The position numbers and the translations under genes are program-made. The notes beneath the pieces are model-generated. The model saw only the letters and a program-made list of their open reading frames with translations, was not told where the DNA came from and did not search any database. Positions 14,746 through 62,537 of a stretch of DNA of 64,000 bases are shown here, piece by piece. Numbering within the stretch: position 1 is the stretch's first letter; each line of letters starts with the position of its first letter. The DNA comes from Psammoneis japonica (taxonomy: Eukaryota), in assembly GCA_008632985.1 (NCBI GenBank), contig QPGO01000247.1, positions 1 through 64,000 of the forward strand, in the 5' to 3' direction.

Positions 14746-14846
14746 CGCTCATTTTTATTTTTTTTCTGGCGATTTTTCTCACCAGTTATGCACGTCGTGT
14801 GTTTCGCGCGCACATCTATTTCTGCGTGCGATCTTCAAAAAAATTG
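14746..14846. mobile_element. Remnant related to the internal sequence of the GAC-TIR MITE family
   Basis: gtcgtgtgtttcgcgcgcacat..ttctgcgtg...aaaaaattg matches ~20932-20980. Confidence 0.55.
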
Positions 14847-15578
14847 CTTGGCGGGCAACCAACAGAATTTTGAAATGACCCGAAAAGGCATGGTTCAAAT
14901 GGCAATTGGATGTGGTTGCGTTGAGATGCTAAAAATGCCACTCCCAAGGAAGAGTTGAACACTGTGATTGCTCAGCAAGTTGGAAAAAACCCTCAAGGCA
15001 AGTTCCTCAATGAAGGGCACAAAGTGCAAGAGCAAACAATGTGGCTGTGATGCCCTGAGTGAGGAGAGACGATTCCGAGGAATGAGTGGAGTGCACAGAA
15101 GAGTCTCACACGTCATTGGACATCAGGAAGCCTGAAAAAAAGGCCAAAACAACACACACCAGTCCAGCAGTCATTGCCTGTGTGAGTGCTTCTCTGGGAA
15201 AAAAAAATTGTTCCACACACCACTTGGCGGGCAACCAACAGAATTTTGAAATGACCCGAAAAGGCATGGTTCAAATGGCAATTGGATGTGGTTGCGTTGA
15301 GATGCTAAAAATGCCACTCCCAAGGAAGAGTTGAACACTGTGATTGCTCAGCAAGTTGGAAAAAACCCTCAAGGCAAGTTCCTCAATGAAGGGCACAAAG
15401 TGCAAGAGCAAACAATGTGGCTGTGATGCCCTGAGTGAGGAGAGACGATTCCGAGGAATGAGTGGAGTGCACAGAAGAGTCTCACATGTCATTGGACATC
15501 AGGAAGCCTGAAAAAAAGGCCAAAACAACACACACCAGTCCAGCAGTCATTGCCTGTGTGAGTGCTTCTCTGGGAAAA
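14847..15578. repeat. Direct duplication of ~356 bp (period 376 bp), near-identical
   Basis: 14847-15202 and 15223-15578. Confidence 0.95.
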
Positions 15579-29646: not shown

Positions 29647-30426
29647 TTATTCTTCCTTGGCAACGCCTTCATACTTCTCAGTATCGACGACATCTTCGTT
29701 CAGACCTGCACGTAGCCAACGCATGACAAACCGTGTTTTCGGATCGTCTTCGCATGGGTCTATGAGTTTGAAAAACAGCTTGGCCCGGTACACACACCAA
29801 GCAAGTGTCCCTTTTGCAGGGCAATCATCTACTAGACGGCGAGGCCCAACAAGAGAATGAGGGTACGACGTCGTGAAGGCTCCCGCAGCCTTCACGAAGC
29901 CACTGTTGACAACCATGTGATGACGGAGCTTTCCACCGGGAAACGTCACGAGACTGCCCGCCTTGACAGGAACGGGTTGCTCCGTTCCTTCAACGACAAA
30001 GCTTGCATCCGGGTTAGTGTTCAAAAACAAAAGAACATTGTCTTGGTCTTCGTCTGTGGCTACGAATGAGCCATCCTCTTGAAGCACCCCGTCGAGGTGA
30101 GGTTCGGTTCCTCCCTCGGTCATGGTCTTCACCATGACGTACCTGCCCTCGTATTCGTCGCTGGTGGTACCATGGACAACGCGGTTCAAATTCTGAACCT
30201 GATCCTTCGACAGGAAAGAAGCAGTGTAATGATCGTTCCAATCGAAAGAGGCGGTCTTGGGGGACGACTTCTGATGAGTACGAAGGGATTCAATGTCTTC
30301 GTTTGAGAAGAAATTCTCAAAGACTTTGACACCGCCACTGGAATCAGAGGCACACGTAGGCTCGATGGCAACAACGGCCGACGGGATAGCCGCGGCAAGT
30401 AGGGGGGTGAGGTTCACAAACTTCAT
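29647..30426 (-). CDS. Secreted 2OG-Fe(II) oxygenase/cupin-like protein, 259 aa
   Basis: Intact ORF; signal peptide MKFVNLTPLLAAAIPSAVVA; VFENFFS.ED, HxD (PHLDG), LLFLN, GSLVTFPG..RH; paralog of 14048-14734. Confidence 0.85.
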   Translation of the reverse strand: MKFVNLTPLLAAAIPSAVVAIEPTCASDSSGGVKVFENFFSNEDIESLRTHQKSSPKTASFDWNDHYTASFLSKDQVQNLNRVVHGTTSDEYEGRYVMVKTMTEGGTEPHLDGVLQEDGSFVATDEDQDNVLLFLNTNPDASFVVEGTEQPVPVKAGSLVTFPGGKLRHHMVVNSGFVKAAGAFTTSYPHSLVGPRRLVDDCPAKGTLAWCVYRAKLFFKLIDPCEDDPKTRFVMRWLRAGLNEDVVDTEKYEGVAKEE

Positions 30427-30511
30427 TGTACAGCTCTAAATCGTGAAGATCCTGTGTCCTGTGTACATAGGCTATTGGTACTATGCATGGGATTGTCTCT
30501 GAGATCCCTGG

Positions 30512-30773: not shown

Positions 30774-31212
30774 GAGCCCAAACAGCGTTGGCGCCATTTT
30801 TAAATAATGACATCCAGTAATTAGGAATCAATAAAAATTTTATTAAAACATAAGATTACTAATGTCTATTTTGACTTACTATTGTATTTAGAGAGTGAGC
30901 GTTGGCTGGAGTAGAACGAAACGGAAGAAGTAGCGATTACACAAAAATAAATAATAGTGTGCAAAATTTGAGGTAGAACTTTAAAGTTATTCGTAACTAC
31001 CTACATGTTAATTTCATATCACCTTAATGTACGAAGATATGATATCCTAACTATTTTTTGATGTACTGTACTGGGCATTTTTTTACCTGGTGTGGGCAAA
31101 GCTTTTTGATTAACTCGACTCGAGCGAAGCGAGAGTCAGCACGCCAAAGTAACCCGGATTTGAAAATAGACACAAAACCGCTCTCACACTTGCGTGAAGC
31201 ACCCATGTCACC

Positions 31213-34200: not shown

Positions 34201-35773
34201 AAAAATGTGTTGAAGTTGGTTCGTCGATTGGTGATTCAAGCCACCATTGAGTTTGATGCAGATGGCTGGCATGGCATGACGAGATTCCTTGCCGACCATC
34301 GTGGCATTACTTCCATGGAGGACACACTTGACCACTTCTACTTCAACCAAGAATTTTGGCACCAGCGAGTCCAGACACACCCCCCCACCACAAAGAAAGG
34401 AGCTGACAACATTCGTGCTGTCCGGGACATGGTGCAATCTAATCCTGTCCTGAAAGAGTGCTGGAGTTCCAACCTGGAACAATGCTTCGACCGGTTGGAA
34501 GAAATGCACCAGAAAGGTCAACTCGAGGAATCTCGAGATGTGGCAATGCATCAGTGGGACGGCAAGGACAAGTGTGGGTTGAATCTTTGGCTGCATCGAC
34601 GGGGATCAAATCGGTCGGAGAATTTGCATCAGAAGATGCGGGTGGCGTTTGGACCCCATGGCGTTGGTGCAAAGGTGGGGCACTTCTTGCTTCTCCTTGT
34701 CACGTGTTGATGCAATGTCAATGCTGGGGTGCGACGCAGTGGTTTCCATGACTTTGGCATGCCGCATCATGACATTGTTGATCGAGTGCAACTTCGTGTG
34801 ACAAAGTTGTTTGCATGCGATCCATTTCCCCATCACACCAACCAGTTGTTGTTTGAGCCAGCAAAGGATTTTGTTGCGGTTGGTGTGGGGCCATTAAATT
34901 GTGATGCCAAGTTTGTTGAGCACCAAGACTCACCGGATCCCAAGCTCACAGGTGACTTGAAGTTTCTTGCTGGTGAGTGGCACCGTGCATTTCTTGACAA
35001 TGTCGCTCTTGCAAATCTCACAGGAACGTTGCTCGGTCGCACTGGAACACATGAAACTGAGAGGCCCCCTGTTGCACATTAGCCATCCCAATGAAAAGCG
35101 AACACACAATGATTTTCTAAAGGATCACCCAAAACCCACGTGGAAAACGTGGGTTGATTTGGCGAGCTTGTTCAAAATGAAAGCAGACTGTGTCATGATT
35201 TTTCCCAAGCTCCCTTCCATGCTCAAAAGCTGCTGCAACAAGTGGAAAGTCACACAGGAGTTGGTGATGCTCAAGGATTCTATTGGAGTGGACTGCTGTG
35301 GACTGTCAAAACAATTTGCTCGGCCAAGTCGGGAAGAACAGAACAAAAATCCGGCTGCTGTTTTTCAGAAAAATTCCAGCAAGCCCACCTTGGAGACAGC
35401 AGCAAACGTGTTGGAGCAGACCATCACAGAGGCTGCATTTGACAATGATGGTGCCATTTCCACCAACCCAATGCCAGTGGCACCATTGGTTGCTCCCACT
35501 CAAGCCACCTGCATTGTCAGCGCCGACAAGGATGGACGCGGGGCAGACCGACGACGCTGCAGCGCCGCTCCTTTTGGATGCCCCAACCTTGCCAAGGACT
35601 GTTCATGGCGGGGATGGCAACATTGCTCATTGGTCAAACGCAAGAGTGTTCCAGTGAATGTGCCTGACTCAGAAGGGGAACGGAAAAGGTTGAAACGTGA
35701 GTGCGACAAAAAGCGGTTGTCAGAGAGAATGGCAGAACTCAGAAAGAAGAAGGGAGCAGCAAGCAACAAGTGA
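31213..35773 (+). pseudogene. Inactivated DUF6729-like putative transposase containing a DnaQ/WRN-type 3'-5' exonuclease domain; introns 32443-32517 and probably 34973-35045
   Basis: CxxC...H.R..C zinc motif, SSDHSFKFAK, exonuclease motifs CGIDSE / NVSFD / CAALD, DRFH, RGSNRSENLHQKM; in-frame TGA at 34708; GT donors with ctcac branch points. Confidence 0.7.
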
Positions 35774-36280: not shown

Positions 36281-37093
36281 CAGGTGAACCGAGCCGGATC
36301 GGATCGCCAGATCGACTCCTTCATGACCCATTAAAACATCAGTCCATCGAGTCAAAAAGTCGATCCGTGGCCTTCGTGGGACTGATCCGCCATCTCGGAT
36401 CGGACGGTCTTTGGAGCAAAACATTTTGCTCCGAAGACCGTCCGATCCGAAAATCCGGATCGGATGTCGGCTCGAATTTGGAAGATTCCGTGCCGTCATC
36501 ATGACAATGGCGCAACATCACACGATTGTGACACAGGGTGGCACAACATTCAGCCATGAGGGCACAGAACTTCCTTGGCATTGCAGCCTTGCTCTTCCCA
36601 TGCTTGAAATGGAGATGAAAAAGGTCGCATGGCAACAGAATGGCTTGTCAAACCGACAATGCCGTAAAGATTTGTTGGAGAAACATTGAACAAGCAAAAC
36701 AACAAGTGTTTGTCACGCAATTCGAAATTTCAATGCGAAAACATGGTGTCAGTTTCTGAGTTGCAAAAGTGATGGCTTTTTCTTCCTTGGTGTGCTGCAA
36801 ACACTGAGTGACAATGATGCTCAATGATGCGGTCAAGTGAGCATGCAAAGCAGCAACGTCAGCATGGTTCTGTCATCACATTGTCTCGTTGTGACAAGAT
36901 GTGAAGCATCACAGCCACACTCTCTCTGTTGTTCGCTGCTGCATTTCAGTGCTTTGTTGTTCTTGAGAATTTGGAATCTTGAAACTTGCGTCGTTTTGCG
37001 ACTCATCAAAATGTCGAATCCTGTCTGCGATCCGATCCGGTTCCACCTGTCGACTAACGGAATTCTGACGTGATCCGATCCGGCGATCCGATC
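36281..37093. mobile_element. Probable non-autonomous TIR element with GATCC/GGATC-rich ends; right end abuts the Ngaro-like element
   Basis: caggtgaaccgagccggatcggatcgcc at 36281 versus gatccgatccggttccacctg (~37029-37050) and gatccggcgatccgatcc (~37076-37093). Confidence 0.5.
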
Positions 37094-37348
37094 CTCCTCG
37101 CACCCAAGTTTAGATGGAGACGTGCTGTGCGACGCAAGACTCCCCAACTGACCAGACCTTGGACTCATGCCTCTTCCAGAAGCGGGCACTTCTGGACCAA
37201 GATGGCCGGTCACAGTGACCAGTCAAATCTGTCAGCTGTTTGCTTTTCACTTTTCCATCTTTGTTGAGACAGGAACCCTGATCAACGTGACTGGATCATT
37301 CCAAAGCACTGGAAAAGCTTCTTTTTGCTCCCTCTCTCGCTCTCGCTC

Positions 37349-42663: not shown

Positions 42664-42940
42664 TGACAGGATTTGAACAGGATTTAGGTGCGCGCGAAGC
42701 ATCGCGCGCTGTTTAGTTTACCGCGCACAGTTTTGTGTGCTTTAGTTCCGCGCGTTCACGCGCGATGTAGTTTGCTTTCGAGCCACAAGGCTCACAAGAA
42801 CAACAACAGTAGCCCGATTGTGCCGACTCACACGTCTTTCGGCTCCTGTGACGGTCTCTGAGCGGAGACTCATCTGCTGTTTAGACAGCAGCAAGGAGTT
42901 GTTGTTTGAATTCTTGCCATTTGCCTTCATTTTTCTGTCA
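42664..42940 (+). repeat. 5' LTR
   Basis: Matches 49494-49770 with 10 mismatches, all transitions. Confidence 0.97.
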
Positions 42941-43880
42941 GATTAACAGTCTTGCTCATTGTCAACCCATTGAGCAACCGCCATCGTCGTCGTTGATTTA
43001 CCAACGATGCCATTTTTAATTCTGCGTGGACCTCCGTACACATTCTACATACATCGGCAAGTCTACGCGCATTCAATGCCAGGGCATCGGCAGGAAGTTA
43101 ACGTCACCGTCAAGTCTCCTTACCGCTGGATGTCTGGATTGATCATGCCACCTTTGATCACTGAAGACATGCATTCAACGGTCATGTCCAAGTCTGTCCT
43201 TGATCCTCATCCCTTGATGCACCTGTTCATCGGTTGACGGTCAAGAACCCTGCACATTCAAGGATCTTCGTCTCTGACGACATGTGCACACACACATGTC
43301 TTCACGGCCAAGAACCTGTGCCCACTCTTCGGACTGCGGTTTTGCTGCCACTCTACAAGCACACCGAGTCCATTGCACCTGATCTGCCCCGGACTGCTGG
43401 TGCTCTACAGTTCTGCTGGGTCCACGAGGACAACTGTGAGAGCAAGCAGCCGTGATCACAGCCTGCGTTGGGGCGAGGGTGCTTTCCCGCGTTTGTTCGT
43501 TCGTCCACAGCGCCCAACGCCTACGTCAACTGGCCAGCCTGATCGGGAAATCCAACCGACATAAAATGAGAACGGTTCGGGGGTCTTGTCCACCTCTGGT
43601 CAGCTTGCCTGCAGGGGTTTACAACCCGCTACTCCGCTCGTAAGCAACCCAAAGCGCCACCAGCTGCGGGTTCGGACGTGCCGGCACAACTCTACGGACC
43701 GGACAGGAAGTTTAGCACTCAACAACGAACGGGATAACAAAGCCCGGCGACTTCTGATTTTAAGACAGTTCAAGATTTCAAGTCAAGTCCATTTCAAGTC
43801 AAGTCTGTTCTCACCCAAGTTTCGAGTCTACCTTCGCTTCCCAACCAGAATTGATTGTCCTGACACCATTTTTGTCTGCC

Positions 43881-46800
43881 ATGGTTCTCACTCGTCAGCA
43901 ACAAACCGATGGTTTCGAGCACGTGGTTGGAACCGTGCTTGCCCAAGGTGCTGGGAGTCCTCTTCGTTTGGCTTTGGCCCAAGACGGCACGGACTCACAT
44001 CAGGAACTGTTCACGTTCATGCCATCCCAAATCGACTCGCTTGAGCACGACAACGGCACTAATGTGATCCCTTTGCCCCGTGGTTATAAGAACATGTTAG
44101 CAGCACCAGTCAGTCTGTACATTGTTAAAGCACACAAAGGTCTTGACGTTGCCAACGACTCCTCTTTGTTCACGCATGACGAGTTCCTTGCCTGCCGCCT
44201 CAGCCCCGACTGCATGTCTTCTGTGTCCATCGGCAGCTCACCCCTTGCACCTCCACATGTCACCAACCCGACCAAGGCACGCGACCCGGTGCGGGACTTC
44301 AAGCGAGGCATCAAGCGTGATCCCACCGCTTTCACGGCTCTCAAATCCGACAAGCAGTGGCACACTTGGCACACCTCACTTGTGGCACAAGCCCGTGCCC
44401 AAGACGTCGAGTGCATTCTAGACTCGTCGTACAAACCGACCAGCCCCGAAGACAAACTGCTCTTTGCTGAACAGCAAAAGCACATGTTCGCCGTCTTCGA
44501 ATGCATCCTTCTCACCGACAAGGGCAAGGCTCTCATTCGCGAAAATGTGGGGTCTTCTGATGCACAGACCGTCTGCCGCTCCTTGTCTGAGTGCGCGCTT
44601 GCCTCCACCCGCGCATCTGTCGAGTCCTCCACCCTGCTCACGTACCTCACCACCGCGCGTCTTGGTGATGGCACTTGGAAAGGTCCGACCCACGGGTTCA
44701 TCCTTCATTGGCAAGATCAGTTGCGCAAGTGCGAGGCACTCATCCCGGCCAATGACCACTTCTCTGAAGGACAGAAGCGCGTCATGCTCGAGAATGCCGT
44801 GCACCCTGTCGAGGAACTCCGTGCTGTCAAGAGCCAAGCTGATCAGCATCGTACGCAGAGTGGCAAGAGCCTCACATGTGATCAATGCTGTGGCTTGCTC
44901 CTCTCCGCGGCAGCTCAGTGCGACAGCACGTTTCAACCCAAGACGACACCTCGAGCTCCCCGACGCGCCACACACGCACCCGATGTCTGCTCCGAGGAAC
45001 CGTCCGACGATGTGTTCTACGACATTGACAGCGACGTTGACGTCCTTCAAGCCAATGCTGCCTGCACCCGCGGTCCCAGCCTCACCGGTGTCCAATGGAG
45101 ACGTCTCCCTCCCGACCACCAACGGCTCTGGGATTCGTTGCCCGATTCCTCCAAGGCGATCATCCTTGAGCATTCTCGTCCACCTCCCCGCAACCCGCGA
45201 GCCAGCAACTGCCATGAGTCTGTTACGGCCAACCTTCACGACCAACGCCTTGGGAGTGACGGTGATGTCCACTTCTCCAACATGACTCCTGCTGACTCTG
45301 GTGACTCCGCCCCACATGTGGACGCCACTTCGGACAATCCCATCCTGGCGCACCTCACCAAGCGCAAGCCACTGCCACCCGGTGATCTGCAACGTCTGTT
45401 GTCTCCTAACCAAGCCCCCAATGCCAGTCGACCGGGGCCATCCGCCGCTTCCTCTACCCCGCCAGCTTCTGCAGATAACATGGAACTTAACGGCCGCACT
45501 TGCCGCCGCGTTGACAACCACAATGTCATTTGCTCTGCCTCTGCTCATCGATCCACACGCACTGGCGCTCCAGTCGATCGTGGGGCCAACGGCGGCATTG
45601 CTGGCGACGACGTTCGCGTCATTGCACGCACCTCTCGCCAAGTCGACGTTCAGGGCATTGACGATCATCAATTGGTGGACATCCCCATTGTCACCGCTGG
45701 TGCCGTTGTTGAGACCCAGCGTGGTCCTGTCATCGCCATCCTCCATCAGTGCGCATGCACGGGAAAGGGCAAGACCATCCATTCCTGCGGCCAGCTCGAA
45801 TGGTGCAAACAGGATGTCAACGATCGCTCTGTCAAGGTGCCCAACGGCTTGCAACGTGTTGCCACTCCTGATGGCTATGTCATCCCCATTGACATCAAGG
45901 CTGGCCTGCCTTATGTTGCCATGCGACCTTACACTGACGCCGAATGGGACACCCTGCCCCATGTCATCCTCACCGGTGATGACACATGGGACCCTTCCGT
46001 CCTCGATCACTCTGTCACTGACGACGACCAGTGGCACGACGCGATCTCTGACCCACAGGACGATCCCACTGCCAACCTGTTTGACGAATGCGGCAACTGC
46101 CGTCATCGTGTCGTTGTCAATGAGACCATCTTGTCCGCTTCCTTGTCTGCCGATCACGCGTCCGCCCTCGATGATCACCTCATTCCGAACGACGACGTGT
46201 TCTACGAGTGTCATCTGCATGCGATTGCCCCCCAGGGCGATGACGTTCCACCTCCGGAGCGCACTGTACAGCCCAAGGACCCCCCCTTCGAGTCTCTTCG
46301 GCCTTGCTTTGGCTTCCTGCCTGCCGATACGGTCCGCCGTGCTTTTGACTGCACCACGCAGTGCGCCCGCATGCCCGCCGGCACACACCTTCGCAAGGCC
46401 TACAAATCACCCAACCCCGCCCTTAATGTGCACCGCCGCAACGAGCCCATCGCCACTGACACCGTTTGTGCCAACACCCCGGCCGTCGACTCTGGTTGCA
46501 CCAGCGCCCAACTGTTTGTTGGCACCGAGTCTACCGTCACTGACGTCTACGGCACTAAGACGGACAAAGAGTTTGTCAACACACTCGAGGATCAGATCCG
46601 TGCATGTGGTGCCCCATCCAAACTCATTAGCGACCGTGCTCAAGTTGAGATCAGCAACAAAGTGCTCAGGATCCTGCGCGCCCTCTTCATCTCTAGCTGG
46701 CAAAGTGAGCCTCACCAGCAACACCAAAACTTTGCCGAGCGTCGACACCAGACCGTGAAGCGCATGGCGAACACTGTCATGGATCGTTTTGGTTCGCCCG

Positions 46801-49546
46801 CCCACACATGGCTGCTGGCGCTCATGTGCGTGTGCTTCACACTCAACCACCAGCGTCCCCACGTCTCCACTGGCGCATGCCCCTCGAGACTCTCACTGGC
46901 TCCACCCCGGACATCAGCCCATTGCTTCGCTTTCACTGGTGGGAACCCGTGTACTTCCACCTCGATGACTCTGATTGGCCGTCTGAATCCCGTGAGTTGC
47001 GTGGACGCTTCGTTGGCATTGCTGAGCACGTCGGCCACCAGATGACCTTCAAGATTCTATCTGACGAGACTCAGAAGATCCTCTGCCGGTCCAACGTCCG
47101 CTCCGCTGCCCCCGATCCTGCCGTTCGAAACCTGCGTCTTGATCCTCCTGATGGGGAGCCACCTGAACCCATCATCAATCTCGCCATGACGACAACCCCG
47201 TCGACTCTCCTGATGGGGAGATCAGGACACCCAAGATGCCAGTTTTCGATCCGCAAGACATCATTGGACGTACCTTCCTCATGCAGCCACAAGAGGACGG
47301 ACAACGCCACAGAGCTCGCATCGTCAAGGCCGTCGAAGACCACGAATGGAAAGTGAACGGCAATCCCGAGCTCACTAAGTTCGTCTGCTCTGTCAACAAT
47401 GACGAATACGAGGAAGTCCTTGCCCACAATGACATCATGAATCACATTGAGCAAGAAGACGAAGACACCACTGTTTGGAAATTTCGATGCATCGTGTCAC
47501 ACGAAGGACCTCTGAAGCCTCACGACCCAACCTGGAAAGGCTCCAGCTACAACATCATGCTTGAATGGGAAAGTGGGGAGATCACGTCCGAGCCTCTTGC
47601 CATCATCGCCAAGGACGACCCCGTCACCTGTGCCATCTATGCACGAGAGAACGGACTCCTCGACACGGATGGCTGGAAGCGGTTCCGCACCATCGCGAGG
47701 CGCCAAAAGAAGCATTTCGCATGGCCAACCAAGCCAAGCTTCACTCCTTCCGCACTGCACCCCGCCACAAGCATGGATGCGAAGTTCCCCGCAACTACAA
47801 ACACGCCATGTCACTAGACGAACGCAACGGCAACCGCAAGTGGGGAGACGCAACCAATCTCGAGATGGACCAACTCGACGAATACGAAGTCTTCCATGAC
47901 TGCGGGCCCTTCAAGTCTTCCACTCCTCCTGCGGGACACAAGAAGATCCGAGTGCACCTGGTGCACGATGTGAAACACGACGGTCGCCACAAGGCACGAC
48001 TCGTAGCCGACGGGCACCTCACGGACGTACCTATCGACAGTGTCTACTCCGGAGCAGTCTCCCTCCGTGGCCTTCGGCTGATGATTTTCCTGGCCGAACT
48101 CAACGAGTTGGAGACATGGGCCACCGACATTGGCAATGCCACCTTGAAGCCACCACCAAGGAGAAGCTTTACATTGTAGCTGGACCCGAGTTCGGCAAAC
48201 TCGAAGGACACATCCTTGTCATCCACAAGGCACTGCATGGACTGCGCAGCTCCGGTCTCCGCTGGCACGAGCGCTTCGCCGACTGCCTGCGAGCTGAAGG
48301 CTTCTTCCCCTGCCGCGCCGAACCCGACATTTGGATGCGCAGGAACGGCGACCACTGTGAATGCATTGCCGTTTATGTGGATGACCTCGCCATTGCCATG
48401 AAGGACCCTCAATCTTTCGTCGACACTCTCACGGAAAAGCACAAGTTCAAGCTCAAGGGTGCGGGACCCATTGAGTTCCATCTGGGTTGCGACTTTTCCC
48501 GGGAACCCGACGGAACCTTGTGCCTGTCTCCGCGCAAGTACATCGAGCGCATGGTCGACAGCCATGCCCGACTGTTTGGGGAGAAACCTGCCACCAACGC
48601 CCTGTCACCTCTAGAGAAGGGTGACCACCCCGAACTGGACACTTCCGAACTGCTGGGACCCGATGGCATTCACAAGTTCCAGTCTCTTGTTGGTTCACTC
48701 CAATGGGCAGTGTCTCTTGGTCGAATTGACATTGCCACGGCCGTCATGTCACTCTCTAGCTTCCGAGCTGCGCCCCGTCAAGGCCACTTGGATCGTGCCA
48801 AACGCGTCTGTGGGCACCTCTCCAAGATGCGACACGGTGCTCTCCGCGTTCGTACGGAAGAGCCCGACCATTCGGATCTCCCTGCTCCGGCCTATGAATG
48901 GATGCATTCCGTGTGTGGTGAAGCAGAAGAGATGATCCCGAAGGACGCTCCACCGCCCCTTGGCAAGTTCGTCACTGCCACCCACTACGTCGATGCAAAC
49001 TTGCACCATTGCATGCTCACCGGACGCTCTGTCATGGGAATGCTCCACTTCCTCAACAAATTCCCGGCTGATTGGTTCTCTAAGAAACAAGCCACCGTGG
49101 AGACTGCGACCTACGGGTCTGAATTTGTTGCCGCAAGGACTTGTGTTGAGCAGATTGTCGACCTGCGCATCACCCTGCGCCACCTTGGCGTCCCGATCCG
49201 CAACGTTAGTTACATGTTCGGTGACAACAAGTCGGTTGTAGACAGTGCCACCATCCCGCACTCCAAGTTACACAAGCGACACACCGCACTGTCGTTCCAC
49301 CGTGTGCGTGAGGCAATTGCCTCTGGTTGCCTTGAGTTCCACTTCATCGAAGGCTCCCGCAACCCTGCTGACATTCTCAGCAAGCATTGGGGTTGCTCCC
49401 AAATCTGGGACCTTCTCCGCCCCCTCATGTTCTGGAACTTCATTCCATCCGAAGTCGAATCTGTTTCTGTGGCTCCTCAAGCAAACTGGGGAGTGACAGG
49501 ATTTGAACAGGATTTGGGTGCGCGCGAAGCATCGCGCGCTGTTTAG
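43881..49546 (+). pseudogene. Copia gag-pol with frameshifts near 46850, 47190, 47710 and 48140
   Basis: DFKRGIKRD gag; VDRGANGG protease; ISDRAQVE...SEPHQQHQNFAERR integrase; KARLVADGH, YVDD RT; DNKSVV, NPADILSK RNase H. Confidence 0.93.
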
Positions 49547-49770
49547 TTTACCATGCACAGTTTTGTGTGCTTTAGTTCCGCGCGTTCACGCGCGATGCAG
49601 TTTGCTTTCGAGCCACAAGGCTCACAAGAATAACAACAGTAGCCCGATTGTGCCAACTTACACGTCTTTCGGCTCCTGCAACGGTCTCTGAGCGGAGACT
49701 CATCTGCTGTTTAGACAGCAGTAAGGAGTTGTTGTTTGAATTCTTGCCATTTGCCTTCATTTTTCTGTCA
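49494..49770 (+). repeat. 3' LTR
   Basis: Preceded by the PPT and followed by the TSD. Confidence 0.97.
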
Positions 49771-52409: not shown

Positions 52410-53318
52410 GTCACGTTCCTCGACTTGTCTCGACTGTTCATTCCTCGAGATTTTTCCTTTCAGGTGGCCACTGCCCGGGAGTTCTCATCGGGGGGGATTT
52501 GAGCTCAGCTTTGCTGGTGCGACCACGGGAGTCTCCTGGTGAAGTCTAGAAGGTTTCCTCCTACGATCCACTCTCAACGACGCGCTCCTGCGGAGTCACA
52601 ACAATTGCGTCTGGCATTGCCTTCGACTCCGGTTCGAGACTCACCTCTTGCGGGGCACCGACGTCGCGCAATGCCAAAGGCACCCCGCACTGGGCTCAGC
52701 CGGAAGCGCCCGGAGCAGTTCCCAGTGGGTTCCATTCATGAGCCCTCGAGCTAGACTCGAGACCCTGCGGAGGGCATGGGTGTCACCCAACCCCCCTTGT
52801 GCGGAGCAGAGTGTCACCGAAAGCTCTGCTCTGTGAGTCTCCTGAGTGTTCTAACACCAAGTTGCTTCTCAGTGGTTCTTGGCTCGGCAGTCTAAGTCTG
52901 GCCCAGATTGGAGTCGGTGCCGCACTGTTTCAAATCCTCCTCACACCCAAGTTTAGATGGAGACGTGCCGTGCGATGCAAGACTCCCCAACTGACTAGAC
53001 CTCAGACTTGTGCCTCTTCCAGAAGCGGGCACTTCTGGACCAAGATGGCCGGTCATGGTGACCGGTCAAATCTGTCGGCCATTTGCTTTTCACTTTTCCA
53101 TCTTTGTTGAGACAGGAACCCTGATCAATGTGACTGGATCATTCCAAAGCACTGGAAAAGCTTCTTTTTGCAACCCACCCACCACTCCCTGGATTTGAGC
53201 TCAGCTTTGCTGGTGCGACCACGGGAATCTCCTGGCAAAGTCCAGAAGGTTTCCTCCTGCGATCTGCTCTCGACAACGCGCTCCTGCGGAGTCACAACAA
53301 CTGCGTCTGGCGTTGCCT

Positions 53319-53742
53319 TCGAGGGCTCGTGAATGGAACCTGCCAGGAACTGCTCCGGGCGCTTCCGGCTGAGCGCAGCGCGGGGTGCCTTCGGCATTGC
53401 GTGACGTTGGCACCCCGCAAGAGGCAAGTCTCGAACCGGAATCAAAGGCAATGCCAGACGCCATTGTTGTGACTCCGCAGGAGCGCGTCGTCAAGAGCAG
53501 ATCGCAGGAGGAAACCTTCCAGACTTTGCCAGGAGAGACTCCCGTGGTCGCACCAGTGAAGCTGAGCTCAAATCCAGGGAGTGGTGGGTGGGTTGCAAAA
53601 AGAAGCTTTTCCAGTGCTTTGGAATGATCCAGTCACGTTGATCAGGGTTCCTGTCTCAACAAAGATGGAAAAGTGAAAAGCAAACAGCCGACAGATTTGA
53701 CCGGTCACTGTGACCGGCCATCTTGGTCCAGAAGTGCCCGCT
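53319..53742 (-). repeat. Inverted copy of the A/B terminal repeats of the YR element, forming a fold-back
   Basis: Reverse complement of ~53021-53322 plus further B1 sequence (~52623-52749). Confidence 0.9.
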
Positions 53743-55274
53743 GTAGACCGAGCCTAAGGGTGGTCGGTTGCCACTTTTTTAGCTCGAATTCGGCCGAACA
53801 GCTCGTGTTTTGCATGATTTTTCCTGAATTTCACCGTGCTTCACCGTGGTGAAAACAACAAGCCATAAGTCTGTGACGGAGGTGGTCCGTCTACCAACTC
53901 TCATTTATTTTATGTTTGTCATGTAACAAAGATTGTACACACATGAAAAGTTGGTAGACGGCAAACTACGTTTTTGAGAAACATCGATGATTGTCATCAT
54001 CGTCGTGCTTCGGTCGCGGTGCTGATGGTTCTCGTTTTCGTGCGCGATCGGGTGTGACTGTGAATAATTCTTGTATTCAAAAATAAACACTATAAAAAAC
54101 CTTATTCAAATGCAACGGTAATTTTAGGATAAACGCGGGGATGACCCCCCCTAAGACGGACGGTGGCTCAAAATTTGCTCTACAGAGCTTTCTACACAAA
54201 ACATGCCAGAAAATGTGCCGTTCCGACGATGATCGATTTCATCGGCGCATCGACCACTGTGCCTTACACCGTTCAGTGGTTGTTCAGATGCTCGCTGTTG
54301 AAGCGCACCATGGTGTTAGAACGGAGAAAATTGGCAAACATTTGATTGATTTATCCCCGAGACTGACCAAGTGCAAAATCGTCACTTTTTCGGCAGGTGC
54401 TGACATGTGTCGTTGATTGTCGTCGCATGTTCCGCTCCGTTGCGCCCTGTAAGTTATGACATGGAAACTTGTGCATGTTTTCGTTGTTGCCTTGCAATGG
54501 CATTGTCTTTCTTGTGGCACAACCATTGTTTCTGTCGTTCGTAACAAATGGCTTTGCATTTTTTGCCAGAAATGTGCTCACTCACGGATTGGGCTCTTCC
54601 TCGTTGTCACGCAGGTTCTCAGTCCATGTGATGCCTTGGTGTTGTTTGTTGGTGTCTGTGTGAGACGTGGTTTGACCACAGCTCTGAGATTCGAGGCAAA
54701 GACAGTCTGGGGTCTCATTTTTGGTTGGGCGTCGCTGTTTTGTGACATTTTTGGAGATTTTTGGACGGTTGTGTCGATTTCTTACCGCTTGGGTAGATTT
54801 GAGTGCATTGGCTGTGCTCATTTAGTGACACTGAGTCAAGGAGGTGAGCTCATGTGACAACATTGTCAACTGTTGGCATTCAAACTCACTCAATGGGGCT
54901 TGCACTTCGCGCAGGATTTCATCAGTTCGCGACAGTGTGGGTGCCTCTAGACTTGGGATGCAACAACACACTGTGTAGGATGGAGAGTTCAGGACTCTCT
55001 TGAGGTTGTGCAATGCAACAGAGGATGACAAGAAGTGGTTTTGGGACAATGAGACATGCCAAAGACACGAATTGTGAGAAGATCTCACGAGGGATTGGAG
55101 ATGACATTGTGACCCAACGGTCATGTGTGTCACTCCGATTGCTGTCGCTAGAAGACTCAATGGACATTTCTTCCGGAAGAAGAGATCCATGACCGGAAGC
55201 GTCATCCGTGAATCAGACTCGGTTGTTGACTCGTGACTCTCCCTCTCAACCGAAAAGAGAAGGAGAACTGTCAG

Positions 55275-58200
55275 TCACCAGCCCATGAGGGCTTTGCGAC
55301 CAGTGCGGAAGAGATCAACAGTCAATCCTTCAGCAAACTGGTCAGCAAGCTGTGCAGCTGAGCTCACAGGCTCAATTTTGATCTCCAAAGCCTCAACTTT
55401 AGTGTGAAGCCAATGGTGGGGAATGCCGATGTGCTTGGTTCGTGGGGACAATTTTGGCACACGGGCGAGTTGGAGGCAGGCAGCATTGTCTTCATACACA
55501 ACGGATGCTGGGAGGTTAGCAGAGTCAATGGGAGAATCCTCAGTTCCGTCGTTGGCGTGTCGGAAAGCCTTCGAATGTGTCGAAATATCGGTCTGTCTGT
55601 CCGGCTGTCCGAAAACGAGCGCGTTGATTTCCTTCACGATCTCGCGAAGGGGGATGAGATCACGCATCGCTTGGGAGAGGGCGACATGCTCGGCTTCCAT
55701 GGTGGAGAGTGCGACGAGGGTCTGCAACTTGGACACCCAGACAATCGGACATCCTGCACAACAAATGACACATCCCGCACGTGACTGAACAGACGTGGGA
55801 TCTTGTCCATCTTCAACACTGAAGAGTCCCGCGAAATCAGCATCAACATGGCAGTCGAGTCGTTGATCGGCGGTTGGAGTTGGGATGAGTCCTTTGTCGG
55901 CCGCATCCTTCAGGTGACGAAGAATGCGCTTGATGGCCACAGCGTGGGAGGCCTTGGGTGCGCAGGAGAACCGTGCGACTTGATGGGTCACGCAAGCAAT
56001 GTCCGGGCGGCTGTTGGACGCTAGACACATCAGCATGCCGACCACGGAACGGCAGTCATGAGGCTCATCGAACGGTGGCCCGTCGGCATCGCTGCCAGCT
56101 GGAGCAGGCAAGGCAGGAGTGGGTGCGCCGTTGCACTCAGTCATCTGTGCGGTGCGGAGAACTTTCTCAATTAGGCCGGGTTGGGTCAGGAGGAATTGGC
56201 TGTCTTCGAGCTTTTGAATCTTGATGCCTGGAAAGTTGCCGACTTCGCCTTCATCACGTAGATCAAAGACATGGCGTTGCTCATCATCAGAAACACCCAA
56301 CTTGGCAATCTCTGCTTCCAAGGCTTGGGCCGATGCGCCGGCGAACACGGTGTCATCAACATGTGCCACACATGACACACCCTTTTTGAAATAAAGACAA
56401 GGGTCAATGGCGGATTGAATCCATCCTCTTTCGAGCAATCCGTCCCTCAGCTTTTCATGGAAGCACTTGGGAGACTGGCGTAGGCCGCACAGGCCTTTCA
56501 ACAATTTTGGCACCAGATCGGCGCCCGATTTTGGCTGGAAACCCTTGGGAGGCTCTACATGGACCTTCTCCTTGATGTCAGCTTGGCAGAAGGCTGCAGT
56601 GCAGTCCACTTGACGTGCAGTCCAACCTTCCTTGAGCACCGTGGTGAGGAGAAGGCGCATGGACGACCATTGCACTGCCGGCGCGCAGGTCTCGAAAAAA
56701 TCGATCCCGTGTTTCTGCAAATCGCCGCGAACGCAATGTCGTGCCTTGCACTTCAAGGGCGCACCATCCGGGAGTCGTTTGAGTTTGAAAGCCCATGTGC
56801 TGGGTGGCACATTCACATCTGCCGTTCTTGGCACCATTTCCCATGCACGTCGGTGGAGCAGCGCGTTGGCTTCAATTTTCACAGCCTTGACCCACTCTTC
56901 GGATTCATCACTGCGCATGGCCTCGTGTGAAGAAGGCATGTCGGGATCTTTTTGCTTTTTAGCAGTTGCATGTACCCTGGGATCGTTGACATTGTAGGTT
57001 TCCGTCTCNNNNNNNNNNNNNNNNNNNNNNNNNNNNNNNNNNNNNNNNNNNNNNNNNNNNNNNNNNNNNNNNNNNNNNNNNNNNNNNNNNNNNNNNNNNN
57101 NNNNNNNNNNNNNNNNNNNNNNNNNNNNNNNNNNNNNNNNNNNNNNNNNNNNNNNNNNNNNNNNNNNNNNNNNNNNNNNNNNNNNNNNNNNNNNNNNNNN
57201 NNNNNNNNNNNNNNNNNNNNNNNNNNNNNNNNNNNNNNNNNNNNNNNNNNNNNNNNNNNNNNNNNNNNNNNNNNNNNNNNNNNNNNNNNNNNNNNNNNNN
57301 NNNNNNNNNNNNNNNNNNNNNNNNNNNNNNNNNNNNNNNNNNNNNNNNNNNNNNNNNNNNNNNNNNNNNNNNNNNNNNNNNNNNNNNNNNNNNNNNNNNN
57401 NNNNNNNNNNNNNNNNNNNNNNNNNNNNNNNNNNNNNNNNNNNNNNNNNNNNNNNNNNNNNNNNNNNNNNNNNNNNNNNNNNNNNNNNNNNNNNNNNNNN
57501 NNNNNNNNNNNNNNNNNNNNNNNNNNNNNNNNNNNNNNNNNNNNNNNNNNNNNNNNNNNNNNNNNNNNNNNNNNNNNNNNNNNNNNNNNNNNNNNNNNNN
57601 NNNNNNNNNNNNNNNNNNNNNNNNNNNNNNNNNNNNNNNNNNNNNNNNNNNNNNNNNNNNNNNNNNNNNNNNNNNNNNNNNNNNNNNNNNNNNNNNNNNN
57701 NNNNNNNNNNNNNNNNNNNNNNNNNNNNNNNNNNNNNNNNNNNNNNNNNNNNNNNNNNNNNNNNNNNNNNNNNNNNNNNNNNNNNNNNNNNNNNNNNNNN
57801 NNNNNNNNNNNNNNNNNNNNNNNNNNNNNNNNNNNNNNNNNNNNNNNNNNNNNNNNNNNNNNNNNNNNNNNNNNNNNNNNNNNNNNNNNNNNTGCCCCCC
57901 TTCCAACGGATGGATGCGTGGAGAAGCATCGCTCTCGCCATGTTGGAGACGGAGCGAATGCCGCGTTCTGTGACGCCGTTCTGATGGTGGGCATTGGTTC
58001 CGCAAAAACGTAGACGTTGTTCGTGCTGTCGCATGTGTTGCACAAAAGCATTGGCCTTGAAAGCGCCAGAATCGGCAAGAAATTCTTGGATGATGACGCC
58101 GTGGTCCATCGCGTGCTTTTCAAACGCTTGCTTCGCTCGCACCGTTTCCACAGCAGAGAAACCAAGTTGGTGTTCAACATGCAGGTAACCGGAGGCATGA

Positions 58201-61200
58201 TCCACAAAAATGCAGCCTCCTTTGCATTGCTGGGACGAGGCCTTCCCGCAGGAGTCGCAGGTTCGGCCGAGGAGACGGGATTCGAAGTGATCCACGCTGA
58301 CGGCTTGGCCTGGGCGTAGATGCTCGGTGCATGGCACGCCATCGTCTTGACGACGAGCTCAGAGCCGTCCTCGTTGTGGAAAACCCAGGAGACGGGTCCG
58401 ATGCCGGCGATGGTTGAGCCATTTGCTAGACCCCCAAGCTTCAATGGGCCACCAGGGATCGTCAGAGGTCGGACAAAGTCGTTTTCATTGCAAGCAATGG
58501 CCAAGGATGCGCCAGCATCGCATGTGATGGTGTGGCGCTCATGTGCCAGGCTCAGCAAAGCTTGCGGGTTGGCGGCGAGTTGTGCTAAAGAACGTTGGCC
58601 TGTCAATGCCTGCACAGAGGCATGAGTGGGACAGGCTTCGGTTCCATCAGTAGCTGCCTGGAGAAGCTTCACAGGGTCTTGCCATGGAGTGGTGTCCACG
58701 AAACCAAACTTGGTGGACAGCTCGTCGAAACGAAAATAGTCCGGAGAGAGCTCCTCAACCGCATCAAAGCAGTGGCTCGGCTCGGTCGGGAGCGGGCCGA
58801 GGGCTTCCTCTGAATCACAGGTGTCGAAGCAGGACTCGGGGTCTTCTAGAGCTGGAGGGACACAGCGGCCTGGGGAAGAGCATGCGTCGTTCTCCCAGAG
58901 CTGCGTGAATTTCTTGCTCAGACAATGGTCCGGATCGAGCTCCACAAATTCGGTGAGCACTTGTTGCGCCTTGATCTTGTTGTGTTCCACCAAACTGCCC
59001 GGATCTGACACTGTCTCATCGTCCAGTTCTTCAATGATCGAGTGGACCTGAGAGCCAGCTTTGGAGAAGCGAGAGGGGACATTGGAGAATGGATGCGTGG
59101 GAAGCTGACCGTTGAAAACAGACGCCCAGACCATGACAGCTCCAGTCAGCACCATCCAGGTAGAGGGGAAACCGTGAATGGTTGGGATGAATGCCTTGCG
59201 GCGTGTACGACGAGGTAAGACAGGAATCGGCGCACAGCAAATGTGCAGTGCCATTTCCCAGAACATGGCAAACAGCCAGAAAACTCGGAGCTTCAAGAAG
59301 TTCCAGAAGAGCTCAAGACGAGAGCTCGGCGTTGCCTCCTCGACGCCACAATCAACATCTTGGGGTTCGGGATCGTAAAATTCGAAACCGCGACACTGGG
59401 TGCTTGGAGGTAAGTGCTCGTAGCTGTCTTCGAAAGGTGGGATGCTTGCCCCGGAAACGAGATCATCTGACACGTCGTCAGACAGACCTTCCACGTGAGT
59501 TGCGATCGTGTCATAAAACACGTCCGGATTTTGAATCTCATGCACAGCACAGGCCGGAAATGGCTCGACAGCTGACGGCAGGGAGTCAAAAGAGGAGTGA
59601 GCGTCGGAGTGCTCGGAGCAATCGTCAGCGTCTTCGGGGTCAACCGTTTCAACCAAGATGGGAGCGGGTTTGGCCACGGCAGTCTCCCTCTCGGCCGATG
59701 GAGCAGGAGTGAACGTGACGGTCGTAGTCACTGGAGTCGAACTCAAAGAGTCGTCCACAGGTGCACACCACATGCCGCAACAAACCAGCTTGTTAGGGTC
59801 AGAGGGTTCATCTGTAGGCGGAGACGTCGTCTGCTCGGGAGGACCAAAAGGAATGCCCGAAGAGGGGTCCGACACAGCAGATAAATTTGCCGCAGCGGTG
59901 GTTTCGGTTTTGACAGACGGTTTCCCGGTGTGTTGAGCGGAGGAGTGGCCTTGACACATGCCCTTCTTGCCCGTTTCCTTGTTCACACACTTGTCGCACC
60001 AGTGCCAGGTCGTGCCTTTCTCGTCAGTGACAGTGGCACCTTTGTGAACGAAACGCCAGGCCGGCTTGGGTGGTTTCTTGGAAGGGTTGGTCTTCCGGAC
60101 ATCCGGAGGGTCATCCTTGGACTTGTCCGCCGTGCCCTTTTTGTCCTTCTTGCATTGCTCCTTGCAGGTGGGACACGTGCGTTTGGTGCACCCAACCTTG
60201 CCACAGCCGTGGCAATGCTTTTCCGAGTTGTCCTTGGCGAGGTTGGATTCCGGGAGCTTGGCTGCTGAGGCAGGCCAATCTTCATCGCTAATGAGTTCGC
60301 CATGGGTCTTGGTGATCCAGCCAATGAGGCCAACAGGTCCAAGATCCGCACAGTCGGCATCCTTGGGGACTTCTGCCGGGTCACGCAAGCAACATTTGCG
60401 CTCCAAGCGCTTGACGGAGTCGAGCTTGGCAAAAACTTGACGATTGAAAAACTCGGAGGATGTCTTTGATGCCTTAGATAAAATGGTGGACCCAGTTTCA
60501 ACTGGCAACGCATGGTCCGTCTGCATGATCTTGAGCGGGCGCAGAGCTTCGGTTGCAAGCTCGGTGCAGCCCTCGCCAGGGCAGGTGTCCAGAGTTAAGT
60601 CGTTCAACTTTTCCTTGGCGGCCTTGACGTCAACCAGAGCACTGGCATTGCAGGCATCCAGAGCCATCATAAATGAGACAGACCCCGCAAGATCCTTGTA
60701 GTTCTTCAAGTGATTAAACTTGGCTTCAATCTTTTCACGGAAGGTTTCGGTGATGCGCGACTTGACGATGAGTTGTGATGAGCCGATGTCATCGATTTCA
60801 TGCTGATCGTAGCCTTCGTCACCTGTGGCCGCCACACGGGTCTCACATTCCTTCTCAAGGTCTTTGACAGTGAAGGCATGAAGATGATCAAAAAGGCACA
60901 TGACCTTGCCGTCGACTTTCTTGAGATGGTAGAAAGTTTCTTGTCCGTGCGACTCGATTAAGTCCTGAATGGTCTTGACGAAGTGGTCTTTGTCCAGTTC
61001 AGTGCTGGAACCGTTGGATGGCTCAATCTGGCCGTTGAACTTGGATGTGGTTGCCGAAGCGAGTTGATCTCGGAGAGATCGCTCGATAGAGTCGACAGCT
61101 TTCGGATGGCGACGTTGCGAGGCAAAATGGCAGGTGCGGGTGTCGGTCTGCTCGCACTTGTTGTTCAGAGCCGAACCACCCAGATGCACTCCATGAGAGT

Positions 61201-61309
61201 GGTGGATGCCGCCGCGAAGCGGCGTGGGGATCGCAGGAGGGTTGGTCGAGGTTTGCATCTTGGCGAAGGCCTCAGCAAACATCTTGACGGTGTCAGGATC
61301 CATGGACAT
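55275..61309 (-). pseudogene. Copia gag-pol; frame change and probable deletion between protease and integrase (~58330)
   Basis: Zn knuckle CHGCGKVG; CDAGAS protease; VSVDHF, FVDHAS, ADSGAF, HHQNGVTER integrase; WAFKLKR, HVDD RT; HVDADFAG, YEDN, QLADQF RNase H. Confidence 0.93.
57009..57892. other. Assembly gap (884 N)
   Basis: Run of N. Confidence 1.
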
Positions 61310-62537
61310 GGTTGTGGATGATTCGACACAGAGGATCGATTAGCAGGTGGGGATTGCGACATAGATGATCGCCGTTGGATTGCGACATAGAAGATCGCCG
61401 TTGGATGGGATGTCGTCTGTAACGAGACGAACGAGTGGCAGCAACTCCGTTACGAGTTGATGCCGGTGCGTGGATTGGGGTCGTAACCACTTGGGATGCA
61501 ACAATGCACTGTGTAGGATGGAGAGTTCAGGACTCTCTTGAGGTTGTACAATGCAACAGAGGATGACAAGAAGTGGTTTTGGGACAATGAGATGCGCCAA
61601 AGATGCGAACTGTGAGAAGATCTCACGAGGGATTGGAGATGACATTGTGACCCAACGGTCGTGTGTGTCACTCCGATTGCCATCGCCAGAAGACTCAACG
61701 GACATTTCTTCCGGAAGAAGAGATCCATGACCGGAAGCGTCATCCGTGAATCAGACTCGGTTGTTGACTCGTGACTTCTGGCAATGGCATGAGACAAACA
61801 CCGTCACAGCGACAAGCACGTGCACACAGGAGACACAAAAGAATGTGTGCAAAGGTTAATTGGCAAGTCGGTGTTGCAATTTTGCTCATAATTTGCTTCT
61901 GTGACTCAACAATTGCAGTTTTTGTTTTCGCCTCTAGCAAGATCTCCCACTTTAAGACGCAGCGCGGATCGAAAACACAGGCTGATCAGTGGGCTTGGTG
62001 GGGATTCAGCAGCATTCTTTGGTGCACCTCTCGGTGCTCAGTGGCACTGTCGTGTCTCTTCCTTGGCGTTAATTGCCGGTGAGAATATTTCTATTTTTTG
62101 CATTGATGTTTCCAATTTTGTTGCCTCTCTTGAATCCTGTGTCACGGATGTTCTCACTTCTTGCACCCTCCCTTCTCTTTTTGGCCTCCCATCATGCGGC
62201 AACTGCTGGTGGACGACTGCCAGCTCAATGACCTGGCGTGATAGTTCATAGGTCGTGGTTCGATGTGTGGCTAGCGCGATCGAGCCGAGAGAAAAGGATC
62301 GACACATCCGATTGTGAATGATGGAATGAGGAGCTGTGTGGCAGTTGCGCAACTACAGGGCTTTGTCATGGCAACTCGAAACATCCCAATGCCACAAAAG
62401 ATTCATTCTACAGTGCTAGATAGCCTTGGGAGTCGTCGTTCATGCCGATAACAGCAATGAGACGATGCGCTTGCGGCATGTCCGGAAAAACGGCACCGTA
62501 ACAAACGGCCTACATACGACCCTGGTACATCGTCCGT

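Follow-up and report, generated by a model that had tools for sequence, protein, structure and literature searches.

The current work concerns a Ty1/copia-type long terminal repeat (LTR) retrotransposon on the minus strand between positions 54951 and 61776 of the window, by which is meant the whole stretch of DNA analysed (the first 64,000 nucleotides of contig QPGO01000247.1, assembly GCA_008632985.1). The inserted element, its LTRs and its flanks were probably hit in place, at the DNA level, by a near-saturating process that targets TpA and converts T:A to C:G, and the finding represents a new and particularly clear example of a mutational process that was first described only very recently. 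Both LTRs of a newly made copy are produced from one template and start out identical, and differences between them arise after integration. The LTR pair therefore provides a built-in clock and control, in which all differences are later than the insertion and were made in place.

Differences between the LTRs and around the insertion site

A repeat search of the window returned a direct repeat pair of 288 nt, 54951-55238 (left LTR) and 61489-61776 (right LTR), with 95% identity and 6538 nt apart. Comparison base by base bore out the first-pass annotation of this DNA in that the LTRs differ at 14 of 288 sites, by transitions only, and in that four reciprocal doublets are present where one LTR reads CA and the other TG, the sequence contexts being exactly as quoted there; the bases just outside the repeat gave the same imperfect five-base target-site duplication (TSD). 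The differences and the two TSD copies are as follows.

Doublet 1: CA at 54967-54968 (left), TG at 61505-61506 (right), 17 nt from the LTR edge
Doublet 2: CA at 55055-55056 (left), TG at 61593-61594 (right); with the adjacent 55057, CAT versus TGC (61593-61595)
Doublet 3: CA at 55066-55067 (left), TG at 61604-61605 (right)
Doublet 4: TG at 55143-55144 (left), CA at 61681-61682 (right)
Single difference at 55010: G left, A right (TG versus TA)
Single difference at 55057: T left, C right (TG versus CG), adjoining doublet 2
Single difference at 55072: T left, C right (TT versus CT)
Single difference at 55123: A left, G right (CA versus CG)
Single difference at 55149: T left, C right (TA versus CA)
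Single difference at 55161: T left, C right (TG versus CG)
54946..54950: left TSD copy, TCTAG, which keeps TA
61777..61781: right TSD copy, TCTGG, with TA changed to TG

The six single differences comprise two in which TA stands against TG or CA (55010 and 55149), three of CG type (55057, 55123 and 55161) and one T/C difference before a T (55072). In all three CG-type cases the right LTR has CG where the left has TG or CA, and these differences are due to CpG decay, a second, slower process alongside the loss of TA.

Chance is an unlikely source of this pattern, because adjacent differences are too frequent, because the differences concentrate in one class of dinucleotide, and because the pentamers on either side nearly match. 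Five adjacent pairs are seen among the 14 differences, as compared to a random placement on 288 positions (200,000 trials) which generates at least four at a frequency of 0.002 and at least five at 1e-4. Pyrimidine-purine (YpR) dinucleotides contain 13 of the 14 differences versus 46.5% of LTR positions (binomial P = 4e-4), and TCTAG and TCTGG are identical at four of five positions, a match which a random pentamer pair would reach with P ~0.016 (by arithmetic).

According to the mechanism favoured here, a Ty1/copia-type element would have inserted on the minus strand, creating a TCTAG target-site duplication, after which the element, its LTRs and the surrounding DNA would have been hit at the DNA level, with T:A to C:G changes almost only within the palindrome TpA. 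The choice of strand would set the product, a hit on one strand giving TG and a hit on the other CA. Near saturation, with ~0.8 or more hits per copy at each TA site, most of the TA sites present at insertion would have been hit independently in both LTRs; half of these double hits would be visible as reciprocal CA/TG doublets, and the other half would be hidden, with both LTRs reading CA or both TG. The slower decay of CpG to TpG or CpA would yield the three single differences of CG type. A DNA adenine deaminase acting on TpA would be the leading candidate enzyme, by analogy with what has been proposed for Bigelowiella natans, and an alternative chemistry would be a thymine modification in TpA that mispairs with G; modification of A and modification of T are indistinguishable because TpA is a palindrome.

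Other copies of these sequences are represented by contigs of the public runs X1, X2 and X3, of which 778, 14 and 0, respectively, were placed on 54300-57008 at 80% likeness. The X2 contigs cover 8 of 30 bins, all of them in the left flank and LTR edge and none within the element, and this does not speak for an absence. The similarity of four X1 contigs breaks off just before 54951, marking the family boundary. One X2 contig aligns to 54950 and continues for 223 further letters, the first 30 of which equal the window after 61781 except for TA in two places where the window has CA. This contig is an unoccupied, diverged copy of the insertion site, perhaps a paralogue rather than an allele, and, since its alignment ends after 54950 rather than before the A at 54949, it most likely reads TCTAG. 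The first-pass annotation had pointed to the empty site, where TCTGG, together with CG at the doublets, would speak against its reading; the contig found aligns through TCTAG, not TCTGG. In other X2 contigs of the left flank, TA, TA and CG stand for CA, TG and TG of the window, and within 30 nt of the site the X2 contigs read TA for CA or TG of the window twice on the left and twice on the right. Taken together, the contigs support a TSD that started as TCTAG, with the left copy as the unmutated one, and flanks that were hit too, in agreement with the first-pass annotation. The DNA hosting the element (54300-54950) is a repeat family itself, at a depth of 1288-2203 and with many copies that differ, and the flank of the window departs from the family majority by a TG/CA doublet at 54629-30; the X2 copies of the left flank are without 72 nt, 54845-54916.

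Direction and extent of TA loss

The sampled 31-letter words of the stretch are present in run X1 at a proportion of 0.55, and the summed depth of X1 contigs is 5456-8763 over the LTR bins versus 1288-2203 in the left flank. The LTR and the left flank both belong to repeated families. Figures for positions at which the family has another letter than the window refer to the 40 rows listed out of 328, and in 33 of these 40 the other letter accounts for at least 50% of X1 depth. The 33 majority rows are composed as follows.

TA in the family against CA or TG in the window, by transition: 11 sites (6 CA and 5 TG in the window)
TA in the window against CA or TG in the family: 2 sites
CG in the family against CA or TG in the window: 6 sites
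CG in the window against CA in the family: 1 site
Other transitions, not in YpR: 7 rows
Transversions: 4 rows
TG/CA doublet at 54629-30: 2 rows

The first-pass annotation had proposed an LTR consensus from other copies as the means of distinguishing TA from CG as the original state of the doublets. In the family, T predominates at 55055 (98%) in doublet 2 and at 55066 (87%) in doublet 3, and C at the adjoining 55057 (93%); the second bases, 55056 and 55067, have no row among the 40 of 328 listed, nor has 54949 in the left TSD copy, which is taken only to mean that no other letter is in a strong majority there. With C accounting for only 2% and 13% of family depth, respectively, at the first position, CG is excluded at doublets 2 and 3, and the family state read from the contigs is TAC at 55055-7 and TA at 55066-7. 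A T in first place points to TA, not CG, and the suggestion that a palindromic dinucleotide had been hit on opposite strands is thereby supported, with TA as that dinucleotide at doublets 2 and 3 in the family copies. A coherent reading would be that the left LTR underwent TA to CA at both doublets, plus CG to TG at 55057, and that the right LTR underwent TA to TG at both. Further rows within the LTR concern 55010 (G in the window, A in the family, 80%), 55123 (A and G, 86%) and 55161 (T and C, 84%). At 55115 (C and T, 74%) both LTRs have CA where the family reads TA, and this site is a candidate for a hidden double hit in the same direction. All four doublets probably began as TA, with direct support for doublets 2 and 3 and with counts as the basis for the rest.

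For these counts a per-copy hit probability p is assumed, such that shared sites are expected at ~(1-p)^2, single differences at ~2p(1-p) and reciprocal doublets at ~p^2/2. The LTRs have one shared and two single TA sites, and 11 shared and three single CG sites. From these numbers, the likelihood of all four doublets having arisen from TA relative to all having arisen from CG is 136:1, and the estimated loss per copy is p = 0.81 for TA and 0.11 for CG. The three CpG singles predict 0.06-0.32 CpG doublets, and the two TA singles predict 2.3-4.5 doublets at p 0.82-0.9. The non-YpR background consists of one difference in ~154 LTR positions, which suggests, from that single difference, that TA is lost ~100- to 1000-fold faster than other sites.

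The coding region of the element provides an independent set of TA sites. By its sequence the element is a dead copy of a Ty1/copia-type LTR retrotransposon on the minus strand, where its long open frames are located; RVT_2 (PF07727) was recognised in frame 55275-57008 with E = 1e-33 and 117 bits versus a cut-off of 31.6 (Pfam), and the closest proteins in a collection of 5.8 billion are 60% identical or less. Its parts are listed below.

54951..55238, minus strand: 3' LTR (the left LTR), 288 nt, before which four X1 contigs diverge and over which contig depth is above that of the flank
55239..55247, minus strand: putative polypurine tract GAGAGGGAG, directly upstream of the 3' LTR, read from the sequence
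55275..57008, minus strand: reverse transcriptase and RNase H open frame with RVT_2; TA observed/expected 0.14, CG 0.84
57009..57892: assembly gap of 884 N inside the element
57893..58358, minus strand: integrase-like fragment upstream of the gap, aligning to N-terminal parts of longer homologues
58359..61339, minus strand: upstream open frame where gag and protease are expected, without a recognised domain
61471..61488, minus strand: primer-binding-site-like sequence, which together with the last T of the LTR starts TGGTTACGACC, read from the sequence
61489..61776, minus strand: 5' LTR (the right LTR), 288 nt

The fragment at 57893-58358 aligns, for example, at 72% over 106 aa to P0012, and the longer homologues in question continue into RVT_2; Pfam and PDB sequence searches gave no integrase (rve) match for this fragment, in a region broken by the 884-N gap. 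The putative primer-binding site is a TGG-initiated stretch of 18-19 nt beside the 5' LTR, for which the window has no tRNA gene for comparison. On the plus strand the LTR starts with AC and ends with CT (AG...GT on the minus strand); it does not have the TG...CA termini, which are common though not universal, and the boundary is confirmed by the contigs. Self-BLAST found no copies of the LTR family within the 64-kb window beyond the two LTRs, and a metagenome scan with a degenerate LTR pattern gave 0 matches.

In order to examine tyrosine (Tyr) codons, the reverse transcriptase (RT)-RNase H frame was aligned with 60 of 120 listed homologues (P0001-P0060), and columns with at least 40 residues present and at least 70% agreement were retained. 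The element keeps Tyr at 0 of 15 conserved Tyr columns, which now specify 7 His, 6 Cys, 1 Trp and 1 Ile through the codons CAT (five), CAC (two), TGC (four), TGT (two), TGG and ATT, i.e. CAY or TGY at 13 of the 15. Other conserved residues are retained (Pro at 20 of 20 columns, Asp at 21 of 22, Cys at 6 of 6 and Arg at 17 of 18); the 18 conserved Arg columns carry 14 CGN codons, three AGR and one CAC, so that 14 of 15 conserved CGN codons are still in place. Tyr accounts for 0.5% of the frame versus 3.3% in homologues, with His and Cys raised, and within the element as a whole the observed/expected ratio is 0.14-0.20 for TA and 0.84-0.91 for CG. As read from this alignment, TAY codons were converted to CAY or TGY in about equal numbers and essentially to completion, and CpG-containing Arg codons stayed nearly intact.

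The same alignment shows the direction of the change, TA having been lost and not gained, as well as the strand symmetry of that loss, with 7 His (CA on the coding strand) versus 6 Cys (TG). Keeping 0 of 15 Tyr corresponds by arithmetic to a retention below 0.18 at 95%, i.e. a loss of at least 0.82, which agrees with the 0.81 obtained from the LTRs. By both estimates TA targets are near saturation, as the first-pass annotation had argued from double hits at low overall divergence, and the 15 conserved Tyr codons, 13 of them now CAY or TGY, support that view. The catalytic-site Tyr of the polymerase motif is among the replaced residues, so most Tyr changes must have followed the transposition of this copy, provided that it was not mobilised in trans. 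Beyond the TA core, no clear preference of sequence context was found among 24 polarised sites, for which it should be considered that Tyr sites bias the 3' base.

Three further repeat pairs of the window were compared in the same manner. The first LTR pair (42663/49493) differs at 10 of 278 sites, all by transitions, with five TA singles, three CG-type changes (CGCG versus CATG, and one CG/CA) and one doublet. This pair still shares five TA and the RT of its element keeps YVDD, so the first element is less mutated than the second. It is a copia-type element as well (42664-49770, plus strand), with RVT_2 in 47900-49543, TG...CA LTRs and a perfect TCGGG duplication. Its LTR pair was rejected as an outgroup for the second pair as the sequences are unrelated, and the Tyr test on its frame (47900-49543) was set aside since the frame is too divergent from the homologue set, keeping 4 of 12 Tyr columns with a general retention that is also low.

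The D5 pair (37091/52934) has 15 differences, all of them transitions, which include four CA/TG doublets, six CG singles and one TA single. Three copies make up the D5 family (37091-37328, 52934-53322 and, in reverse, 53434-53860), with an inverted pair of copies around 53.0-53.8 kb; the family was rejected for polarising doublets, as its copies relate as (B,(A,C)) and only two A-specific changes were polarised, both CG>CA. A control tandem pair (10974/11329), situated in TA-exhausted, CA/TG-rich DNA, has nine differences, four of them transversions, and no doublet. The duplication in question covers 10974-11628 with a period of 355 and copies 97% identical; another tandem duplication, 14847-15522, has a period of 376 and copies 100% identical over 300 nt.

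Evidence to the contrary and alternative explanations

Several observations weigh against a process that acts in place, after integration and on TpA only. The shared TA at 54975 is intact in both LTRs. None of the 40 rows listed (of 328) concerns doublet 1 or 4; the X1-only rows among them all have a share of at least ~66%, and the family state of doublet 4 may be mainly the TG of the left LTR, in which case the right LTR would need a two-step change. The seven majority rows that are transitions outside YpR imply that the process, or the history of the copies, was not purely one of TpA; these rows and those of CG type may reflect a second process or subfamily differences. Two A>G differences in the X2 contigs of the left flank are likewise outside TpA, and the X2 contig of the empty site has several differences and a 72-nt gap nearby, its TSD letters being deduced from the end of the alignment. 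Contig depth is a sum over copies and not a copy count, and the read evidence consists of contigs from one sample, which is maybe the source sample of the window assembly. In principle, the Tyr losses may predate the insertion if the copy was mobilised in trans.

An explanation that we regard as unlikely is that some doublets represent two changes in one lineage, with CA turning into TG by way of a transient TA or CG, or a dual C/A deaminase converting CpA to TpG at once. Doublets 1 and 4, for which no majority row of another letter is listed and where the left LTR may have the state of the family, are compatible with such a history, as are the doublets seen elsewhere (four among the 15 D5 differences, and the one at 54629-30 between the flank of the window and the family majority); the B. 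natans preprint, moreover, cites ADAT2 enzymes reported to be active on both A and C in DNA (bioRxiv 10.64898/2026.01.13.699255). Against it, the tandem pair in TA-exhausted, CA/TG-rich DNA is without a doublet among its nine differences, new TA generated by ordinary C>T should be rare given one non-YpR transition between the LTRs, and TA in the family accounts for doublets 2 and 3.

Deamination of methylated CpG that struck a different strand in each LTR, turning CG into TG in one copy and into CA in its partner, would also give reciprocal doublets, and CpG decay does act on this DNA: the three CG-type singles have CG on the right and TG or CA on the left, the family reads CG at 55057, 55123 and 55161, the first LTR pair has CGCG versus CATG, old non-coding DNA has a CG observed/expected ratio of 0.06-0.3, and the six CpG singles of the D5 pair predict ~1 CpG doublet there. 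As the source of the four doublets it is nevertheless very unlikely, given that family copies rarely have C as the first letter of doublets 2 and 3 (2% and 13% of depth) and the opposing likelihood ratio of 136:1; with 11 CpG shared by the LTRs and 14 of 15 CGN Arg codons kept, CpG decay is far from saturation, and 0.06-0.32 doublets would be expected as opposed to four.

A sequencing or assembly artefact, in which a modified T in TpA is misread as C and the consensus picks CA or TG at random per site, likewise predicts CA and TG in roughly equal numbers, together with reciprocal doublets in repeat pairs, and would fit with the proportion of only 0.55 of sampled 31-letter words found in X1. 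We know of no polymerase misreading of such completeness, and we consider this explanation highly improbable. In X1 itself, further copies of the LTR family have TA at high depth, 217 placed contigs are at least 99% alike to the window, TA depletion tracks a real depletion of CpG while coding islands keep TA, and conflicts at intervals of a few tens of bases would presumably have hindered the assembly of a 64-kb scaffold. Dinoflagellates do provide a precedent for the thymine modification that such an artefact requires, enriched on repeats including Copia LTRs (PMC11071213, PMC11572971).

Editing prior to integration, be it ADAR-like on the RNA of the element or a deamination of its cDNA as in antiretroviral editing, deserves almost no credence. 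Retroelements are known targets of editing, and a preference of ADAR for U before the edited A is mentioned in the Discussion of the preprint (bioRxiv 10.64898/2026.01.13.699255). The LTRs differ from each other, however, which places the changes after integration, the TSD and both flanks were hit too, and the strands were hit about equally (7 His versus 6 Cys). An equally negligible chance is given to a C-to-T process at CpA resembling repeat-induced point mutation (RIP), with TA as product rather than substrate: transitions only, in repeats, and TA versus CA or TG at three differences here (including the TSD) and at five in the first pair would suit it, but TA in the window is depleted to 0.16 and not enriched, conserved Tyr codons are lost, and, in the rows listed, family TA stands against window CA or TG at 11 sites with the reverse at two.

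Known systems and the wider window

The only report of TpA-directed A:T>G:C hypermutation of genomic DNA that was found in the literature searched is a 2026 preprint on viral inserts in one alga, B. natans, in which integrated giant-virus and virophage DNA is targeted (Mettrop et al., 2026, bioRxiv 10.64898/2026.01.13.699255). Of 231 mutations recorded in two integrated viral regions across mutation-accumulation lines, 230 were A>G or T>C, those all on TpA, with TpG or CpA as products depending on the strand and at a rate ~1000x that of the genome as background; reverse transcriptase and DDE endonuclease domains are over-represented among coding sequences poor in TpA, and an ADAT2-like adenine deaminase was proposed as the enzyme (bioRxiv 10.64898/2026.01.13.699255). 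The main text of the preprint never mentions LTR, retrotransposon, copia or CpG (bioRxiv 10.64898/2026.01.13.699255).

As far as the preprint describes its system, the present case resembles it in kind, with TpA as the main target of A>G and T>C changes that give TpG or CpA according to the strand, and with a long-term depletion of TpA and enrichment of CpA and TpG. It differs in the evidence, which here consists of an LTR pair, TSD and flanks and there of mutation-accumulation lines; in a deeper depletion (0.01-0.06 in non-coding DNA and 0.14-0.20 in the element, versus a Rho of 0.45 for the NCLDV region of B. natans); and in its reach, which here includes all unselected DNA of the 64-kb window and not only recognisable foreign DNA, with CpG co-depleted.

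Fungal RIP is similar in that repeated or foreign DNA, LTR elements included, is degraded where it stands by transitions confined to a dinucleotide context. RIP converts C to T mainly at CpA and enriches TpA, whereas in the present case TpA is destroyed by A:T>G:C changes and GC content rises; the Discussion of the preprint also gives RIP as C->T (bioRxiv 10.64898/2026.01.13.699255). The decay of methylated CpG to TG or CA on either strand is paralleled here by three LTR singles and 6 of the 33 family-polarised sites, but the loss of Tyr codons, the T of the family at doublets 2 and 3 and the number of doublets are not explained by it. APOBEC and ADAR editing share with the present case deaminase-type transitions with a neighbour-base preference on retroelements; unlike what is seen here, their editing precedes integration and cannot make LTRs differ or alter TSD and flanks. 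With respect to thymine chemistry, 5-hydroxymethyluracil (5hmU) is enriched on dinoflagellate transposons including Copia LTRs, older work cited for Crypthecodinium cohnii indicates a preference for TA and TC, and no 5hmU motif was recovered in Breviolum minutum (PMC11572971, PMC11071213). The passages on 5hmU in these papers report no mutagenic outcome, unlike the present case (PMC11572971, PMC11071213). The dinucleotide passages of a paper on Foraminifera (PMC11980380) were considered and found not relevant.

Across the whole window, the observed/expected ratio is 0.16 for TA, 0.63 for CG and ~1.5 for CA and TG. Non-coding 1-kb bins (1-13 kb and 15-29 kb) have TA at 0.01-0.09, CG at 0.06-0.5 and CA+TG at 1.7-2.0, the exception being the bin at 23-24 kb (TA 0.18, CG 1.32), and sharp islands in which TA reaches 0.34-0.73 and CG is close to 1 are situated at 1-1000, 13-15 kb, 29-32 kb and 62-64 kb. 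The most TA-depleted DNA (0.01-0.06) is non-coding and without recognisable foreign origin, TA being kept (0.35-0.73) in coding islands only, and the loss of TA is not confined to foreign DNA. All DNA not visibly under selection has lost TA, more completely where the loss of CpG suggests greater age.

We tentatively put forward, as a possible though rather doubtful extension, that TpA-directed A:T-to-G:C editing acts on all unselected DNA and not only on viral inserts, in an organism that is probably not B. natans, so as to erase TA from a new retrotransposon while ordinary sites diverge by well under 1%, with CpG decay driving neutral YpR to a CA/TG equilibrium; here, too, the chemistry could be a thymine modification. 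If true, a genome defence or mutational regime of a newly described kind would thereby have a second, far stronger example. The element itself shows that the process acts on retrotransposons at the DNA level, on both strands equally, that it reaches the TSD and flanks, and that it saturates its targets while ordinary sites barely change, and the window suggests that it is not limited to foreign DNA. Confirmation in a second organism would make the enzyme and the targeting rule experimentally approachable.

The loss of TA also explains two oddities of such regions, namely very long spurious open frames and proteins without tyrosine. Stop-to-stop frames of at least 130 aa number 109 in the 64 kb, most of them without a domain, and could mislead gene callers; long spurious frames are in excess because TAA and TAG have nearly vanished. 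A frame with a weak WD-repeat match (2870-3457) has 0 Tyr. No Rfam families or tRNA genes were found in the window, and the dinoflagellate spliced-leader motif is absent from it. Frame 31198-34707 (plus strand, 1170 aa) has a 3'-5' exonuclease domain (PF01612), is transposable element-like and has only 4 Tyr; DUF6729 on its protein-atlas neighbours suggests, as a lead only, a transposon gene. Two paralogous open frames, 14051-14785 and 29650-30435, both on the minus strand and ~15.7 kb apart, have 5-6 Tyr each, a normal content, and are located inside the islands at 13-15 kb and 29-32 kb. No Pfam family and no homologue was found for this pair, which, from sequence and composition, look like live tandem genes within TA-free DNA.

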